64,000 nucleotides of DNA. It comes from Escherichia coli. Its GTDB lineage: Bacteria > Pseudomonadota > Gammaproteobacteria > Enterobacterales > Enterobacteriaceae. The notes under the pieces were generated by a model. The model was not told the DNA's origin. It ran no database searches and saw only the letters and a program-made list of their open reading frames with translations. The DNA lies in NCBI RefSeq assembly GCF_965641715.1, contig NZ_OZ282453.1. The stretch is one strand, 5' to 3'. Shown in pieces: positions 3,143 to 54,798 of the stretch. The position numbers were made by a program, and so were the translations under genes. Every line of letters begins with the position of its first letter. The stretch's first letter is position 1.

Positions 3143-6100
3143 ATGATTACTATTGACGGTAATGGTGCGGTTGCTTCGGTGGCGTTTCGCACCAGTGAAG
3201 TTATCGCCATCTACCCTATTACCCCCAGTTCCACGATGGCAGAACAGGCTGATGCCTGGGCCGGAAACGGCTTGAAGAACGTTTGGGGAGACACACCACG
3301 CGTGGTTGAAATGCAGTCGGAAGCGGGTGCTATCGCTACCGTGCATGGCGCTTTGCAGACGGGAGCCCTTTCAACATCGTTTACGTCATCGCAGGGTTTG
3401 CTGCTGATGATCCCGACGCTGTACAAACTGGCAGGCGAACTCACACCGTTTGTCCTGCATGTAGCGGCACGTACCGTTGCCACACATGCACTCTCTATTT
3501 TTGGCGATCATTCCGACGTCATGGCGGTGCGCCAGACGGGTTGCGCGATGTTGTGTGCGGCAAACGTCCAGGAAGCGCAAGACTTTGCTCTCATTTCGCA
3601 CATCGCGACGCTGAAAAGCCGCGTGCCATTTATTCATTTCTTTGATGGTTTCCGTACGTCCCACGAAATCAATAAAATTGTCCCGCTGGCCGATGACACG
3701 ATTCTTGATCTCATGCCGCAGGCCGAAATTGATGCTCATCGCGCCCGGGCGCTCAACCCGGAACATCCGGTGATCCGCGGTACGTCCGCCAATCCTGACA
3801 CTTATTTCCAGTCTCGCGAAGCCACCAACCCATGGTACAACGCGGTCTATGACCATGTTGAACAGGCGATGAATGATTTCTCTGCCGCGACAGGTCGTCA
3901 GTATCAGCCGTTTGAATATTACGGGCATCCGCAAGCGGAACGGGTGATTATCCTGATGGGCTCTGCCATTGGCACCTGTGAAGAAGTGGTTGATGAATTG
4001 CTAACCCGTGGCGAAAAAGTTGGCGTGCTGAAAGTTCGCCTGTACCGTCCCTTCTCCGCCAAACACTTGCTGCAAGCTCTGCCGGGATCCGTACGCAGCG
4101 TGGCGGTACTGGACAGAACCAAAGAACCCGGTGCCCAGGCAGAACCGCTCTATCTGGATGTAATGACCGCACTGGCAGAAGCCTTTAATAATGGCGAGCG
4201 CGAAACTCTGCCCCGTGTCATTGGTGGGCGCTATGGTCTTTCATCCAAAGAATTTGGCCCGGACTGTGTACTGGCGGTATTTGCCGAGCTCAACGCGGCT
4301 AAACCGAAAGCGCGCTTTACGGTTGGTATTTACGATGATGTGACCAATCTGTCACTGCCGTTGCCGGAAAACACCCTGCCAAACTCGGCGAAACTGGAAG
4401 CCTTGTTTTATGGCCTTGGTAGTGATGGCAGCGTTTCCGCGACCAAAAACAATATCAAGATTATCGGTAATTCCACGCCGTGGTACGCACAGGGCTATTT
4501 TGTTTACGACTCCAAAAAGGCGGGCGGCCTGACGGTTTCTCACCTTCGCGTGAGCGAACAGCCGATTCGTTCCGCTTATCTCATTTCCCAGGCTGATTTT
4601 GTTGGCTGCCACCAATTGCAGTTTATCGATAAATATCAGATGGCTGAGCGTTTAAAACCTGGCGGCATTTTCCTGCTCAACACGCCGTACAGCGCAGATG
4701 AAGTGTGGTCGCGCTTGCCGCAGGAAGTTCAGGCCGTGCTAAACCAGAAAAAAGCGCGCTTCTATGTGATTAACGCAGCGAAAATCGCCCGCGAATGTGG
4801 CCTGGCGGCCCGTATTAATACCGTCATGCAGATGGCTTTTTTCCATCTGACGCAAATTCTGCCTGGCGATAGCGCCCTCGCAGAATTGCAGGGTGCGATT
4901 GCCAAAAGTTACAGTAGCAAAGGCCAGGATCTGGTGGAGCGCAACTGGCAGGCTCTGGCGCTGGCGCGTGAATCCGTAGAAGAAGTTCCGTTGCAACCGG
5001 TAAATCCGCACAGCGCCAATCGACCGCCAGTGGTTTCCGATGCCGCCCCTGATTTCGTGAAAACCGTAACCGCTGCGATGCTCGCCGGGCTTGGTGATGC
5101 CCTCCCCGTTTCGGCGCTGCCGCCAGACGGCACCTGGCCGATGGGCACTACACGCTGGGAAAAACGCAATATCGCCGAAGAGATCCCCATCTGGAAAGAG
5201 GAACTCTGTACCCAATGTAACCACTGTGTTGCCGCTTGCCCACACTCAGCTATTCGCGCAAAAGTGGTACAGCCTGAAGCGATGGAAAACGCCCCTGCCA
5301 GCCTGCATTCGCTGGATGTGAAATCGCGTGATATGCGCGGGCAGAAATATGTCTTGCAGGTGGCTCCGGAAGATTGCACCGGTTGTAACCTGTGCGTCGA
5401 AGTTTGCCCGGCGAAAGACCGTCAGAATCCAGAGATTAAAGCCATCAATATGATGTCGCGCCTGGAACATGTCGAAGAAGAGAAAATCAATTACGATTTC
5501 TTCCTCAACCTGCCAGAAATCGACCGTAGCAAACTGGAACGTATTGATATTCGTACATCGCAGCTGATTACACCGCTGTTTGAATATTCAGGTGCTTGCT
5601 CCGGTTGTGGCGAGACGCCGTATATTAAATTGCTGACTCAGCTCTATGGTGACCGGATGTTGATCGCTAACGCCACCGGCTGTTCTTCAATTTATGGCGG
5701 TAACCTGCCCTCTACACCGTATACTACCGATGCCAACGGTCGTGGTCCGGCCTGGGCGAACTCTCTATTTGAAGATAATGCCGAATTTGGCCTTGGTTTC
5801 CGCCTGACGGTCGATCAACACCGTGTCCGCGTGCTGCGTCTGCTGGATCAATTTGCCGATAAAATCCCGGCGGAATTACTGACGGCGTTGAAATCAGACG
5901 CCGCGCCAGAGGTTCGTCGTGAACAGGTTGCAGCTTTACGCCAGCAACTCAATGATGTTGCCGAAGCACATGAACTGCTGCGTGACGCAGATGCACTGGT
6001 GGAAAAATCAATCTGGCTGATTGGTGGCGACGGCTGGGCTTACGATATCGGCTTTGGCGGTCTGGATCATGTATTGAGTTTGACGGAAAACGTCAACATT

Positions 6101-7032: not shown

Positions 7033-8166
7033 ATGAAAAGCAAAGTACTGGCACTTTTAATTCCTGCCCTGCTCGCCGCAGGTGCTGCACATGCAGCCGA
7101 AGTTTATAATAAAGACGGCAACAAATTAGATCTGTATGGCAAAGTTGATGGCCTGCATTATTTTTCTGATAATTCAGCGAAAGATGGCGACCAGAGCTAT
7201 GCGCGTCTGGGTTTTAAAGGCGAAACCCAAATTAACGATCAACTCACTGGCTACGGTCAATGGGAATACAATATTCAGGCAAACAACACTGAATCTTCAA
7301 AAAACCAGTCATGGACCCGTCTGGCATTTGCCGGACTGAAATTTGCAGATTACGGTTCTTTCGATTACGGACGTAATTATGGCGTAATGTACGACATCGA
7401 AGGCTGGACCGATATGCTGCCTGAATTTGGCGGTGACTCTTATACCAATGCAGACAACTTTATGACTGGTCGTGCCAATGGCGTCGCGACTTATCGTAAT
7501 ACTGATTTCTTCGGTCTGGTAAATGGTCTGAACTTCGCGGTGCAGTATCAAGGTAACAACGAAGGTGCCAGTAATGGTCAGGAAGGCACCAACAACGGAC
7601 GTGATGTTCGCCATGAAAACGGTGACGGCTGGGGTCTTTCCACAACATATGATTTAGGCATGGGCTTTAGCGCTGGTGCGGCATACACCTCTTCTGACCG
7701 CACCAATGACTAGGTTAACCATACTGCGGCGGGTGGTGATAAAGCAGACGCGTGGACTGCTGGGCTAAAATACGATGCTAACAATATTTACCTGGCAACC
7801 ATGTATTCAGAAACGCGTAATATGACCCCGTTTGGCGACAGCGATTATGCTGTTGCAAACAAAACCCAGAACTTTGAAGTCACTGCACAGTACCAGTTTG
7901 ATTTTGGTCTGCGTCCGGCAGTCTCTTTCCTGATGTCTAAAGGCCGTGACCTGCACGCTGCCGGTGGTGCAGACAACCCGGCAGGTGTTGATGATAAAGA
8001 TCTGGTTAAATACGCCGATGTTGGCGCGACTTACTATTTCAATAAAAACATGTCCACTTATGTTGACTATAAAATCAACCTGTTGGATGAAGATGACAGT
8101 TTCTACGCTGCCAACGGCATCTCTACCGATGATATTGTCGCTTTAGGTCTGGTTTATCAGTTCTAA
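7033..8166 (+). pseudogene. ompN: Outer membrane porin OmpN interrupted by an in-frame amber codon (TAG at 7711-7713)
   Basis: ORFs 7033..7713 and 7801..8166 are one reading frame; porin signal peptide [21 protein letters not shown] and C-terminal ...LGLVYQF; the frame continues ...[40 protein letters not shown]... across the stop. Confidence 0.8.
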
Positions 8167-8773: not shown

Positions 8774-8916
8774 GATTCATTTCGCAAATGTGCTGACATT
8801 TTCCCCTCTAATCCGTACCATACACGCCACAGTTTTTATATCAGATTTCTTATGCTGGGCGTTCCGGCATGACGCATACTCTTCTGATGCCATATAACGA
8901 ATTGAGTCGCTTTTAA

Positions 8917-8970
8917 ATGTCGCAAAATCAAGAAATTAGCAAGAAAGAACAATACAATCTGAACAAGTAA
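8917..8970 (+). pseudogene. ttcC: ttcA 5' remnant (ttcC-like) left at the int-distal prophage junction
   Basis: Reads [17 protein letters not shown] and shares the 26-bp core aagaaagaacaatacaatctgaacaa (8941..8966) with the ttcA start at 53887..53912. Confidence 0.85.
8941..8966. repeat. att core, int-distal junction
   Basis: Exact 26-bp repeat of 53887..53912. Confidence 0.85.
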
Positions 8971-9067
8971 GGGTAAAAATCACAACTATCTGACGAACAA
9001 TGTTTTTATAATTTTTTCAACATGTTAGACAGGATGAACATCTACAATAAAGCACAATAATCTACAC

Positions 9068-9120
9068 TTTTTTTGCCCCATTTTTGCCCCTTTTACGGCC
9101 TTTTGTCCCATTTTTGCCAC
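9068..9120. repeat. Tandem TTTTTGCCCC-like decamers near the int-distal att (candidate Int arm-type sites)
   Basis: tttttgcccca tttttgcccc ttttacggcc ttttgtccca tttttgccac; related copies lie next to the other att (53819..53840). Confidence 0.5.
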
Positions 9121-9307
9121 AGTAAAAATCTATAACTAATCAATCTGTGATCTGCAATTTGCGCCCATGAATTCTTTCCAATAGAATCAGTTCCGGCTGG
9201 AATCATTAAATACCCCCACAGTCGAAAGTTCCCTAGCCAACTGCCGCCGTTCTTACATATGACGTACTGCGGCTATGTTTTTCAATCTGTAGCTGTGCTG
9301 GTGAATT

Positions 9308-9637
9308 ATGAGCAATCTGAATCCATGCATGACGTGTGGTGCCTGTTGTGCATTTTTCCGCGTCTCTTTTTACTGGGCCGAAGCCGATGATGCTGGCGGT
9401 ACTATCCCTGCAAGGCTCACAGAACAAATATCCCCTTTTCACCGATGTATGAGCGGTACCAATCAGAAAAATCCCCGCTGTGTCGCTCTGGCAGGCACTC
9501 CGGGCAAAAATGCCTGCTGCACAATATATGACAATCGTTCGTCCACATGCAGAGAATTCGCCATGTCTGGTGAGAACGGAGAAGCCAATGAGGCGTGCAA
9601 CAGAGCAAGGGCTAAATATGGGCTGGACCCGCTATAA
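9308..9637 (+). CDS. Cysteine-cluster protein (CxxCxxCC, YkgJ-like putative Zn/Fe-binding domain)
   Basis: 109 aa ORF with CMTCGACC motif and further cysteines; lies just inside the prophage boundary. Confidence 0.5.
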
Positions 9638-48123: not shown

Positions 48124-50109
48124 ATGAGCACAAAACCACTCTTCCTGTTACGGAAAGCGAAAAAATTATCCGGTGAACCTGACGTCGTCCTGTGGGCAAG
48201 CGACGATCTTGAATCGACCTGTGCCACTCTGGATTACCTGATCGTTAAGTCAGGTAAAAAACTGAGCAACTATTTTAAAGCTGTTGCTACTAATTTTCCT
48301 GTCGTTAACGACCTGCCCCCAGAAGGGGAGATCGATTTTACGTGGTGTGAACGCTATCAACTCGGCAAGGACTCAGTCACTTGGAAACTAAAACCGGGTG
48401 CAGCACCAGACAACGCTCACTATCAAGGCAATACCAACGTCAACGGCGAAGACATGACTGAGATTGAGGAGAATATGTTACTGCCGGTATCAGGTCAGAT
48501 TCTGCCTGTTCGATGGCTGGCACAGCATGGCAGCGAAAAACCGATCACACACGTTTCGCGGAGCGAACTGCGCGCATTACATAACGCACAGGATGAAAAA
48601 CTTCCCGCCGTTACCGCGCTGGCTATCTCAAATAAAGCAGCACAACTCGAACCGCTGGAAATTCGCGAGCTCCACAAACTGGTTCGTGACACTGACAAAG
48701 TTTTCCCTAATCCTAGTAATTCAGACCTGGGACTGATGACTGCTTTTTTCGAAGCATACCTGGGCGCTGACTACACCGATCGCGGTCTGCTTACAAAAGA
48801 GTGGATGAAGGGGAATCGTGTTTCACGCATCACCCGCACGGCTTCCGGTGCTAATGCTGGCGGCGGGAACCTCACCGATCGCGGCGAAGGTTTCGTCCAC
48901 GATCTGACGTCACTGGCGCGCGACGTAGCCACTGGCGTACTGGCCCGTTCAATGGATCTGGACATCTATAACCTTCATCCGGCACACGCTAAACGCATTG
49001 AGGAAATTATCGCTGAAAATAAACCGCCCTTTTCTGTTTTCCGCGACAAATTCATCACCATGCCTGGCGGGCTGGATTATTCCCGTGCCATCGTGGTTGC
49101 GTCCGTGAAAGAAGCACCAATTGGGATCGATGTCATCCCCGCGCAAGTCACTGAATATCTGAACAAAGTACTGACTGAAACCGATCATGCCAACCCTGAT
49201 CCGGAAATCGTGGATATTGCCTGCGGTCGCTCCTCTGCCCCGATGCTGCAGCGTGTAACAGAAGAAGAAAAACAGGATGATGAAGAAAAACCGCAACCAT
49301 CTTGCGCAATGGCAGATGAACAGGCAATGGCTGAAACAGTGGAACCGGATGCAACTGAACATCATCAGGACACGCAGCCGCTGGATGCTCAGTCACAGGT
49401 AAATGCTGTTGATGCGAAATATCAGAAACTGCGGACAGAACTCCATGAAGCCCGGAAAAACATTCCGTCCAAAAATCCTGTCGATGCAGACAAATTACTG
49501 GCTGCCTCTCGCGGAGAATTTGTTGAAGGGATTAGCGACCCGAATGATCCGAAATGGGTTAAGGGGATCCAGACCCACGATTCTGTGTACCAGAATCAAC
49601 CAGAAACGGAACAGAACGACCGAAAATCGGAACAGAACAGCCCAAATACGCAACAAAACGAGCCAGAAACGAAACAGCCTGAGCCAGTAGTGCAACAACT
49701 GGAAACGGAGAAAGTTTGCACCGCCTGCGGTCAGGCTGGCGGCGGCAACTGTCCTGACTGCGGCGCGGTGATGGGCGACGCAACGTATCAGAAAACCTTT
49801 AATGAAGAAAATCAGAATGAATATCAGGAAAAAGGTCTGGAGGAAATGGAAGGTGCTGAACATCCGCACAAGGAGAACGCTGGCAGCGTTCCGCATCGCG
49901 ATTGCAGTGATGAAACTGGCGAAGCAGCAGCTTCATCATTAGAAAAACTCGACTGGAAAAGACAAGTGGTGATTGCAGCGGTTTACGGTTTATGTGCGAA
50001 TCCTGCGGGTATAGCCTCAGCGCCATTAATTCCGGGTATTGCAATGATGATTGCAAACAAACTTGAAAATTTTGGGGTGACGGATGATGAGTACATGCCC
50101 AATTTTTGA
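48124..50109 (+). CDS. recE: RecE N-terminal region (truncated exonuclease VIII, lacks the C-terminal nuclease domain)
   Basis: 661 aa [46 protein letters not shown]... matches the non-catalytic N-terminal two-thirds of Rac RecE (866 aa); the frame ends where lambda gam begins. Confidence 0.8.
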
Positions 50110-52259: not shown

Positions 52260-52358
52260 ATTGCATTGTATTCAAATTAAAACTTCATAGCTGATTATTA
52301 ATAATCAACATCGGGCGTCAATTTCAGTCTAACATTGGCGCCTGCCAGAGGTGATGCG

Positions 52359-52574
52359 ATGGCACAAGTAATCTTTAATGAAGAGTGGATGGTTGAATAC
52401 GGCCTGATGCTTCGCACTGGTCTGGGGGCCAGACAAATTGAAGCATACCGCCAGAACTGTTGGGTGGAGGGCTTCCACTTCAAACGAGTATCTCCTTTAG
52501 GTAAGCCAGACAGCAAACGAGGGATTATCTGGTACAACTATCCAAAGATAAATCAGTTTATCAAAGATTCATGA
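52359..52574 (+). CDS. xis: Excisionase-like protein (Rac Xis/YdaQ-like)
   Basis: 71 aa [43 protein letters not shown]... immediately upstream of int. Confidence 0.7.
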
Positions 52575-52575
52575 T

Positions 52576-53811
52576 ATGTCTAAATTACCAACAGGTGTCG
52601 AGATTAGAGGTAGATACATTCGCATCTGGTTCATGTTTCGAGGAAAACGATGTCGGGAAACATTAAAAGGCTGGGAGATTACAAACAGTAATATTAAAAA
52701 GGCCGGAAATTTAAGAGCGCTGATAGTTCATGAAATAAACTCCGGTGAATTTGAGTATTTAAGACGTTTTCCCCAGTCCAGCACTGGGGCAAAAATGGTG
52801 ACAACGAGAGTCATAAAAACGTTCGGGGAGCTTTGTGATATCTGGACAAAAATTAAAGAGACAGAGTTAACAACAAACACAATGAAGAAAACGAAATCAC
52901 AATTAAAAACACTCAGAATAATAATTTGTGAAAGTACCCCGATATCACATATTCGTTATAGCGATATCTTAAACTACCGGAATGAACTGCTGCATGGAGA
53001 AACGCTTTACCTGGATAATCCAAGATCCAACAAAAAAGGAAGAACCGTGCGCACAGTTGATAACTATATCGCCCTGCTCTGTTCGCTGTTACGTTTTGCG
53101 TATCAGTCGGGATTTATATCAACCAAACCATTTGAAGGAGTAAAAAAATTACAGCGAAACAGAATAAAGCCTGATCCGTTATCTAAAACAGAATTCAATG
53201 CATTAATGGAAAGTGAAAAAGGACAGAGCCAAAACTTGTGGAAATTTGCCGTTTACTCAGGACTTCGTCACGGGGAACTGGCAGCTCTGGCGTGGGAGGA
53301 TGTGGATCTCGAAAAGGGAATAGTGAATGTCAGAAGAAACCTGACGATACTTGATATGTTCGGTCCCCCAAAAACAAATGCCGGGATCCGGACAGTAACA
53401 CTACTGCAGCCTGCTCTTGAAGCACTGAAGGAGCAATACAAACTGACCGGACATCATCGCAAAAGCGAAATCACCTTTTATCATAGGGAGTACGGCAGAA
53501 CCGAAAAGCAAAAACTGCATTTTGTTTTCATGCCCAGGATGTGTAACGGAAAACAGAAACCTTATTACTCGGTAAGCAGTTTGGGGGCAAGGTGGAATGC
53601 AACAGTAAAACGTGCTGGTATTCGCCGCCGTAATCCGTACCATACGCGGCATACTTTTGCCTGCTGGCTGTTGACGGCAGGAGCGAACCCGGCATTTATA
53701 GCCAGCCAGATGGGGCATGAAACTGCGCAGATGGTGTATGAAATTTACGGTATGTGGATTGATGACATGAACGACGAACAGGTAGCCATGTTGAATGCGC
53801 GGTTATCGTAG
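52576..53811 (+). CDS. int: Tyrosine site-specific integrase (IntR-like)
   Basis: 411 aa; C-terminal catalytic region with HxxR and Tyr (...YHTRHTFACWLL...MGHETAQMVYEIY); adjacent to the att core in ttcA. Confidence 0.93.
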   Translation: MSKLPTGVEIRGRYIRIWFMFRGKRCRETLKGWEITNSNIKKAGNLRALIVHEINSGEFEYLRRFPQSSTGAKMVTTRVIKTFGELCDIWTKIKETELTTNTMKKTKSQLKTLRIIICESTPISHIRYSDILNYRNELLHGETLYLDNPRSNKKGRTVRTVDNYIALLCSLLRFAYQSGFISTKPFEGVKKLQRNRIKPDPLSKTEFNALMESEKGQSQNLWKFAVYSGLRHGELAALAWEDVDLEKGIVNVRRNLTILDMFGPPKTNAGIRTVTLLQPALEALKEQYKLTGHHRKSEITFYHREYGRTEKQKLHFVFMPRMCNGKQKPYYSVSSLGARWNATVKRAGIRRRNPYHTRHTFACWLLTAGANPAFIASQMGHETAQMVYEIYGMWIDDMNDEQVAMLNARLS

Positions 53812-53818
53812 TTGCAAA

Positions 53819-53840
53819 GTTTGCCCCCAATTTGCCCCAT
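53819..53840. repeat. Two TTTGCCCC-type decamers next to the int-proximal att (candidate Int arm-type sites)
   Basis: gtttgccccc aatttgcccc; same motif family as 9068..9120. Confidence 0.5.
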
Positions 53841-53862
53841 TTAGTACCAGAGAACTGAAATA

Positions 53863-54798
53863 ATGCAAGAAAATCAAAAGAATACGAAGAAAGAACAATA
53901 CAATCTGAACAAATTACAAAAACGCCTGCGTCGTAACGTGGGCGAAGCCATTGCTGACTTCAATATGATTGAAGAAGGCGATCGCATCATGGTTTGCCTC
54001 TCCGGGGGTAAAGACAGCTATACCATGCTGGAGATTCTGCGCAATTTGCAGCAAAGCGCGCCAATCAATTTTTCGCTGGTGGCTGTTAACCTCGATCAAA
54101 AGCAACCGGGCTTCCCGGAACACGTTCTGCCCGAGTATCTTGAAAAGCTGGGCGTTGAGTACAAGATTGTTGAAGAGAACACTTACGGTATCGTGAAAGA
54201 GAAGATTCCAGAGGGCAAAACCACTTGCTCACTGTGTTCTCGCCTTCGTCGCGGTATTCTTTATCGTACCGCAACGGAACTGGGGGCGACGAAGATCGCG
54301 CTGGGTCACCATCGTGACGATATCCTGCAGACGCTGTTCTTAAATATGTTCTACGGCGGCAAGATGAAAGGTATGCCTCCGAAACTGATGAGCGATGATG
54401 GCAAACATATCGTTATTCGTCCGCTGGCCTACTGCCGCGAGAAAGATATTCAGCGATTTGCCGATGCAAAAGCGTTCCCGATTATTCCGTGCAACCTGTG
54501 CGGTTCACAGCCTAACCTGCAACGTCAGGTGATTGCTGACATGTTGCGTGACTGGGATAAACGTTATCCAGGGCGTATCGAGACGATGTTCAGCGCGATG
54601 CAGAATGTGGTGCCGTCGCATCTGTGCGATACCAACCTGTTCGATTTCAAAGGCATCACCCACGGTTCTGAAGTGGTTAACGGGGGTGATCTGGCGTTTG
54701 ATCGCGAAGAGATCCCACTACAACCGGCGGGCTGGCAGCCAGAAGAAGATGAAAATCAGTTGGATGAGTTACGGCTGAATGTGGTTGAAGTGAAATAA
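53863..54798 (+). CDS. ttcA: tRNA 2-thiocytidine(32) synthetase
   Basis: 311 aa with PP-loop SGGKDS and CxxC motifs; the first 8 codons are prophage-derived (see att). Confidence 0.96.
53887..53912. repeat. att core, int-proximal junction (inside the ttcA 5' end)
   Basis: Exact 26-bp repeat of 8941..8966. Confidence 0.85.

Follow-up and report, generated by a model that had tools for sequence, protein, structure and literature searches.

Paired heptamer repeats flanking the attachment site of a Rac-like prophage in Escherichia coli as probable arm-type sites of the integrase IntR

A Rac-like prophage of about 45 kb is inserted in ttcA of Escherichia coli within the 64-kb stretch of DNA analyzed here (in the following, the window is this whole stretch), and short repeats are found next to both of its ends. 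These repeats are very probably arm-type binding sites of the Rac-family integrase IntR, as had been proposed in a first-pass annotation of the same DNA. This assignment, which is drawn from sequence comparison, is supported by the occurrence of the repeats on both arms of the attachment (att) site in the same orientation, by their absence from the bacterial site attB, by their conservation in related phages, and by the N-terminal domain of IntR.

Heptamer pairs on both arms of the att site

The 26-bp core identity segment AAGAAAGAACAATACAATCTGAACAA occurs on the + strand at both ends of the prophage. The int-distal copy (8941-8966; attR in the nomenclature of Liu et al. 2015) lies in the leftover native 5′ end of ttcA (8917-8970), i.e. 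the first 17 codons, which were severed from the rest of the gene. The int-proximal copy (53887-53912; attL) is located inside a hybrid ttcA (53863-54798, + strand), the first codons of which are supplied by the phage. The integrase gene intR (52576-53811, + strand) encodes a tyrosine integrase of 411 amino acids, and the gap between its stop codon and the ttcA start codon at 53863 comprises 51 bp. This arrangement matches the Rac layout published by Liu et al. (PMC4632033), who also designated the int-proximal junction attL and the distal one attR.

On the + strand, positions 9068-9120 read TTTTTTTGCCCC A TTTTTGCCCC TTTTACGGCC TTTTGTCCC A TTTTTGCCAC, and positions 53819-53840 read gTTTGCCCCCAATTTGCCCCAt. 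The first-pass annotation had described decamer clusters at both prophage ends, with five tandem copies at 9068-9120. Presence and location of the clusters were confirmed, but the conserved unit is not a decamer; it is TG(C/T)CCC(A/T), a heptamer found in pairs with a spacing of 11 bp, and the far arm holds four heptamers in two pairs instead of five tandem copies. Int-distal pair 1 (TGCCCCA-tttt-TGCCCCT; 9074-9091, + strand, heptamers 9074-9080 and 9085-9091) starts 107 bp after the core, and int-distal pair 2 (TGTCCCA-tttt-TGCCACA; heptamers 9104-9110 and 9115-9121) occupies 9104-9121 on the same strand. The four heptamers on this arm thus start at 9074, 9085, 9104, and 9115 with spacings of 11, 19, and 11 bp, and the two pairs are 30 bp apart. 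What had been counted as the third copy (9091-9100, TTTTACGGCC) fits the consensus poorly, falls outside the 11-bp register, and belongs to the part that varies most among the E. coli variants; the spacer between the distal pairs (9092-9103, + strand) in which it lies is probably no binding site, as judged from its poor fit to the heptamer. The int-proximal pair (TGCCCCC-aatt-TGCCCCA; 53822-53839, + strand, heptamers 53822-53828 and 53833-53839) starts 10 bp past the int stop codon, is separated from the core by 47 bp, and occupies the positions 24-41 bp upstream of the ttcA start codon. With the 26-bp cores as reference, the heptamers are located 47-64 bp from the core on the int side and 107-155 bp on the far side, values that replace the 30-130 bp given before.

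Whether such repeats are conspicuous in the window depends on the pattern counted. The exact 8-mer TTTGCCCC was found five times (two copies at each end and one elsewhere) with 3.2 expected, i.e. without significant excess, and a loose 9-mer showed no enrichment across the window either (275 matches vs. 252 expected). Also, Tandem Repeats Finder reported just 2.3 copies of an 11-bp period at 9070-9094. Scanning of both strands of the 64 kb for TGYCCCA-N4-TGYCCCA with at most one mismatch yielded three matches, all on the + strand and all at the att arms (9074-9091, 9104-9121, and 53822-53839), while 0.12 were expected and none of 100 shuffled sequences reached three. This pair pattern was defined after the relatives had revealed the conserved unit and was then searched for in the window; since neither the 8-mer nor the loose 9-mer is enriched, it is the only informative one. 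The 8-mer count taken by itself would be in line with clusters that arose by chance in low-complexity sequence. The pair pattern, always found at the arms, and the conservation of position, spacing, and orientation across integrases down to 40% identity speak against this explanation, which is practically negligible and was refuted by the comparative data described below.

Conservation in E. coli and in related phages

The int-ttcA junction was found with at least 95% identity in 2909 of 5426 complete E. coli genomes. Within this species the int-proximal junction is too uniform to be informative, while the distal end is diverse. Eight int-distal ends were aligned, and past the att site they form three groups that are unrelated in sequence and differ in gene content. 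Group 1 carries a YkgJ-family gene (window), nleC (CFSAN027350), or a gene for a DUF1076 protein (O157:H7 TT12A), group 2 continues with K-12-type sequence, and group 3 with sitA. All eight ends are alike from the core to the last heptamer, and beyond it they are unalignable (31-42% identity). A comparison of the window type with the K-12 type gave 96% identity for pair 1 and 91% for pair 2, while the stretch separating the pairs reached 81% and the 101-bp spacer 70%; in E. coli the stretch between the distal pairs is the most variable part of the repeat zone (81/72% identity). The gap of 107 bp between core and pair 1 was also found in the K-12-like strain. E. coli genomes free of the prophage match the query only up to the core, and the motif is absent from attB; the repeats are therefore phage DNA.

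Where the last heptamer ends, the prophages show a sharp mosaic boundary (window position 9122 onward; loci L001-L007). Directly past it follow a YkgJ-family gene with a Cys cluster (9308-9637), nleC, the DUF1076 gene, sitABCD, or K-12 sequence. Pair 2 is the predicted outer edge of the functional att site, and the cargo genes would begin right after the last heptamer because the arm sites end there; exchange of cargo genes thus seems to take place immediately at the end of this site. The heptamer number is not constant either: strain LR-27 (L007) carries one extra copy with the unit TTTTTTGCCCC, and three tandem distal copies in the phage YYZ-2008 (L097) compare with two in Stx1_132418. Such differences point to slippage by which 11-bp units are gained and lost.

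One of the related phages is PHB10, a complete phage genome with an intact phage attachment site (attP) and an integrase of the group with about 70% identity. Its attP consists of the int stop codon, TGCCCCT-atta-TGCCCCT, 47 bp, the core, 106 bp, and four heptamers at intervals of 11, 19, and 12 bp. Most of its spacer sequence is unlike that of the window and the sequence between the distal pairs (atttcgcatttt) is unrelated, yet the pair distance of 30 bp is conserved. Likewise, the pair is located exactly 47 bp from the core in two ttcA-integrating IMG/VR sequences (L067, 70% identity; L078, 63% identity). Two further records, vB_EcoS-683R6 and Rac-SA53, were considered as intact attP sites and discarded, as they are prophage excerpts that include ttcA.

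More distant phages with integrases of 40-44% identity, other cores, and other targets (Stx2 converting phage I, Stx1_132418, and YYZ-2008) also bear pairs on both arms. Stx2 converting phage I, a circular record with annotated att site, has GTGCCCCAgacGTGCCCCA in the 3′ end of int and three pairs with a 31-bp period on the distal arm, 120-210 bp beyond the att site. Stx1_132418 carries GTGTCCCAtacaTGCCCCA beside int and, at the opposite end, GTGTCCCAttgaTGCCCCA about 115 bp past the core, while YYZ-2008 combines the proximal pair of Stx1_132418 with three tandem copies on the distal arm. Eleven further IMG/VR sequences with 53-70% identity, representing about seven variants, show the pair at the same place, either after or inside the 3′ end of int; one lineage among the relatives with 53-55% identity has the variant C(G/A)CCCCC-atta-CGCCCCC. 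In total, the int-proximal pair with its 11-bp spacing was present at the same place in all 14 related proximal arms (lineages or variants) examined. In IMG/VR the proximal arm was visible in about 22 of 80 loci and the distal arm in none, because most prophage contigs end 3-6 bp past the int stop codon. For the lineage with the CGCCCCC variant (L085, L087-L089), the distal arm was not among the matches listed, which were mostly unrelated GC-rich phages.

Minor variants of the heptamer match on the two arms of a given phage. The Stx phages have A at position 7 and PHB10 has T, and in Stx1_132418 and YYZ-2008 either arm carries the form TGTCCCA-TGCCCCA, with TGTCCCA as first heptamer. The motif differs from the core, is found at up to about 150 bp from it on either arm of attP, and is conserved across different cores; it thus tracks the integrase family and not the target site. 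Loss of the motif at the ends of related prophages had been named beforehand as an outcome that would speak against arm-type sites. The opposite was found, including the attP of PHB10 and phages with different cores and only 40-44% identical integrases.

The relatives also bear on the question whether the repeats are phased T-tracts that cause intrinsically bent DNA, and not sequence-specific protein sites. Runs of 4-7 T residues start at 9068, 9081, 9091, 9101, and 9111, i.e. about once per helical turn, and PHB10 has T runs as well. In the Stx-type relatives, however, the heptamers are kept with spacers such as gacg, aata, atag, taca, and ttga, and in E. coli it is the heptamers that do not vary. 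Because the relatives keep the heptamers and not the T runs, we rejected T-tract bending as the conserved feature and consider this explanation highly improbable; bending may add to the function in Rac without accounting for the conservation.

A further point concerns the coding context. In Rac the proximal pair is noncoding and follows the int stop codon, while in the Stx-type phages it lies within the int reading frame. As the pair is kept in both contexts, the constraint probably acts on the DNA. Pairs inside the int frame are found in L009 (2742-2761), in L015 and L016 (1836-1853), and in L084, L086, and L090 (near 4227-4260). There, the pair dictates the C-terminal tail of the integrase, which reads ..VPYMPH.. 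(..VPxMPH..) or ..APDVPQ.., while Rac IntR ends just before the pair. In Stx-type and other relatives, the C-terminal tail of the integrase thus seems to be shaped by the constraint on a DNA-binding site.

The pair inside int is also relevant to another explanation, according to which the proximal copies are primarily a promoter or operator of ttcA, or part of an int terminator region, and the far-arm copies are unrelated to them. The proximal pair indeed lies in the only intergenic DNA there, the 51 bp in front of ttcA, 24-41 bp upstream of its start codon, and the pair spacer plus flanks reads TATAAT in L078 and TATTAT in PHB10. These -10-like words are not conserved, as the window has CAATTT. 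A scan of 53400-53950 for the sigma-70 consensus (-35 and -10 elements with 16-18 bp spacing) detected no promoter, although a weak or noncanonical one could escape it, and no terminator was seen in this region. Also, the pair is present inside the int coding sequence of phages that do not integrate at ttcA, and a promoter would leave the far-arm copies unexplained. A primary role of this kind has hardly any probability. The earlier placement of the int-proximal copies within the ttcA promoter is unproven, and read-through from int is equally possible.

IntR, XisR, and the predicted attP

Arm-type sites require a protein domain that reads them, and a candidate is present in IntR. Residues 5-69 (52588-52782, + strand) form an Arm-DNA-bind_2 domain (PF12167; Pfam E=3.8e-26) that precedes the catalytic domain, so that IntR has a separate N-terminal arm-binding domain as in lambda-type (bivalent) integrases. 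The integrases of Stx2 phage I and L085 carry an Arm-DNA-bind_2 domain according to Pfam, too. An AlphaFold model of IntR residues 1-80, based on an alignment of 17 sequences, comprises three strands and a helix with a mean pLDDT (predicted local distance difference test) of 84. A sequence search of solved structures with IntR gave matches to the catalytic domain only; for this reason, a fold search was run with the model of the N-terminal domain. With modest scores and coherent matches, the model points to the AP2-like fold of known arm-binding domains.

Tandem repeats with a phase of about 11 bp on the int-distal arm are typical of excisionase sites. The repeats could thus be sites of XisR (YdaQ), an excisionase that, like lambda Xis or L5 Xis, would cover the in-phase tandem units of the far arm. 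An xisR/ydaQ-like gene for a directionality factor of 79 amino acids (52335-52574, + strand; DUF1233, PF06806, E=8.9e-21) is located upstream of intR, and a YdaQ-like DUF1233 excisionase is annotated beside the integrase in vB_EcoS-683R6, Stx2 phage I, Stx1_132418, and YYZ-2008. The function of XisR was described in PMC4632033, where a 294-bp AttR fragment was shifted by XisR and a 291-bp AttM fragment was not. We mapped the gel-shift primers from the supplement of this study on the K-12-like locus L004. AttR (L004 244-537) contains the bacterial side, the core, the spacer, and all heptamers. AttM (L004 368-658) begins right after the core and holds all four heptamers (475-522) plus about 135 bp beyond them. 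Since AttM was unshifted, the heptamers alone were not bound by XisR in that assay, which is one published experiment. Moreover, Xis sites are expected on the distal arm only, while the pair is also present on the int-proximal arm in 14 of 14 lineages or variants. Because of these two observations, the assignment of the repeats to XisR is very unlikely. The mapped primers further imply a requirement of XisR for the core or the bacterial side (corresponding to 8843-8966; L004 244-658 is equivalent to 8843-9260 of the window). For an excisionase it is unusual not to bind the phage arm alone.

Several points weigh against the assignment to IntR. The support for it is comparative throughout. As a DUF1233 gene adjoins the integrase gene in the relatives, conservation alone cannot separate Int from Xis sites, and the distinction hinges on the distribution over two arms and on the single published gel shift. 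Also, no such repeats were detected in the 1.2 kb after int of PhiR12_2, the integrase of which is 31% identical, but this absence is uninformative because the location of its att site is not known. No mapped arm sites were found for IntR, for integrases of the 933W type, or for the Arm-DNA-bind_2 family in the literature searched, subscription journals being outside of it.

Between the cores and the arm sites lie elements resembling binding sites of the integration host factor (IHF). One of them, TTTCAACATGTTA (9015-9027, + strand), is a candidate bending site with one mismatch to WATCAANNNNTTR and is located between the core and the distal pairs; the other one, AATCAAAAGAATA (53872-53884, + strand), also with one mismatch, lies between the proximal pair and the core. 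At the place equivalent to 9015-9027, an IHF-like element is present in K-12-like Rac (TTTCAATGTGTTA) and in Stx2 phage I (TTTCAATCTGTTA), and PHB10 has two perfect IHF consensus sites in the spacer between core and distal pairs. Words with one mismatch recur in the relatives at the same places, and the background amounts to about one such word per kb. For K-12, GeF-seq data (PMC8407004) show an IHF peak at an IHF consensus near the ttcA start codon, beside Rac attL, and none at the distal att site. The fit of these elements to the lambda scheme is only suggestive.

With IntR as the binding protein, the attP of the excised phage would consist of the int stop codon, one pair, 47 bp with a candidate IHF site, the 26-bp core, 107 bp with an IHF-like site, and two pairs. 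With a total of about 250 bp, this predicted attP would be similar in size to lambda attP. One IntR protomer would recognize one TG(C/T)CCC(A/T) with its Arm-DNA-bind_2 domain, so that the protomers would bind the heptamers with their N-terminal domains and the core with their C-terminal domains. As the heptamers of a pair are 11 bp apart, two protomers would be placed side by side on the same face of the helix. Bending of the arms by IHF would let the protomers bridge arm and core sites in a recombination complex. Upon integration into ttcA, the single pair would stay with int and the two pairs would go to the other end of the prophage. Six sites for four protomers suggest that, as in lambda, integration draws on one subset and XisR-dependent excision on another. 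The sequences show the sites with their layout and conservation as well as the domains of IntR; IntR binding, its stoichiometry, and the differential use of sites are inferred.

A similar arrangement was seen in a GC-rich IMG/VR phage by searching for the pattern. Two CGCCCCC-N4-CGCCCCC pairs in the same orientation are 199 bp apart (L115, 46-63 and 245-262; L141, 10-27 and 209-226, - strand), and in a reconstituted Rac attP the distance from the start of the proximal to the start of the distal pair would be 198 bp. These pairs lie just upstream of an integrase gene; its product matches the AP2 domain weakly (E=0.0011, which misses the Pfam cut-off) and Arm-DNA-bind_2 not at all. A C-rich arm motif may thus be common to distantly related arm-binding domains of the AP2 fold.

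Known systems and neighboring features

Arm-type sites are textbook biology and ordinary for lambda-type phages; conceptually, the Rac sites add nothing beyond the lambda model. In lambda attP (P1, P2, P′1-P′3, bound by the N-terminal domain of Int), too, each arm carries a short motif that differs from the core, adjacent sites of the int-proximal arm follow one another at about 10-11 bp, the length is about 250 bp, and arm sites outnumber protomers; between core and arm sites, lambda has IHF sites and Rac IHF-like words. There, binding was proven by experiment, while the Rac sites are predicted. The lambda arm-site motif is C/AAGTCACTAT, compared to TGYCCCW in Rac, and the N-terminal domain of lambda Int belongs to a Pfam family other than PF12167. 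The lambda sites are arranged as 2 + 3 with P2 inverted, while those of Rac all have one orientation and form 11-bp pairs (1 + 2). The N-terminal domain of the integrase of the Yersinia high-pathogenicity island (P4-like) belongs to a different Pfam family as well, and its arm-site sequences are not known to be related. The solved structure of this arm-binding domain (PDB 3jtz) shares only 16% sequence identity with that of IntR. Xis sites of lambda (X1-X1.5-X2) and mycobacteriophage L5 are likewise direct repeats in helical phase on the int-distal arm; they differ in being confined to one arm and bound by Xis, while the Rac motif is found on both arms and the far-arm fragment was not bound by XisR.

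The same motif family had been recorded for Stx2 converting phage I (AP004402) as "repeat region III, arrangement gg". Each of the annotated 31-bp repeats contains TGCCCCA-N4-TGCCCCA, 120-210 bp from the att site. That record annotates the repeats without function, and the matching pair in the 3′ end of int is unannotated.

A usable consensus results from the comparison: pairs of TGYCCCW 11 bp apart, with one pair next to int and, about 105-120 bp past the core, one to three pairs or a tandem triplet. It can be used to delimit attP, attL, and attR, to judge the ability for excision, and to design minimal att sites. This can be advantageous since Rac-type prophages occupy ttcA in over half of the complete E. 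coli genomes and the integrase family of IntR also mobilizes Shiga-toxin phages. A far-reaching extension would be that all integrases of the Arm-DNA-bind_2 family, including those of the Stx phages, share the heptamer pair as arm-site code and, in addition, that IntR at the proximal pair modulates ttcA. We regard this combination as speculative and rather unlikely; if true, the output of ttcA, a host gene for tRNA thiolation, would be tied to the integrase level and the state of the prophage.

Some features adjacent to the att sites or elsewhere in the window were noted in addition. At the left end, uspF is followed by a promoter-like site and the native ttcA start. The promoter-like site, CTGACA-17-TACCAT (8793-8821), and the orphaned 17 codons still point into the prophage. 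The YkgJ-family cargo gene (9308-9637) lies about 340 bp beyond these codons in the same orientation and might be transcribed from the displaced host ttcA promoter, across the putative integrase arm sites. Upstream of uspF, a porin-like gene is split into two parts (7033-7713 and 7801-8166; 226 and 121 amino acids) and may be disrupted. Within the prophage, an open reading frame of 661 amino acids upstream of recT (48124-50109) contains a 21-bp tandem repeat (49600-49677; 3.7 copies, 72% matches), which encodes a low-complexity stretch rich in Q, E, N, and P.
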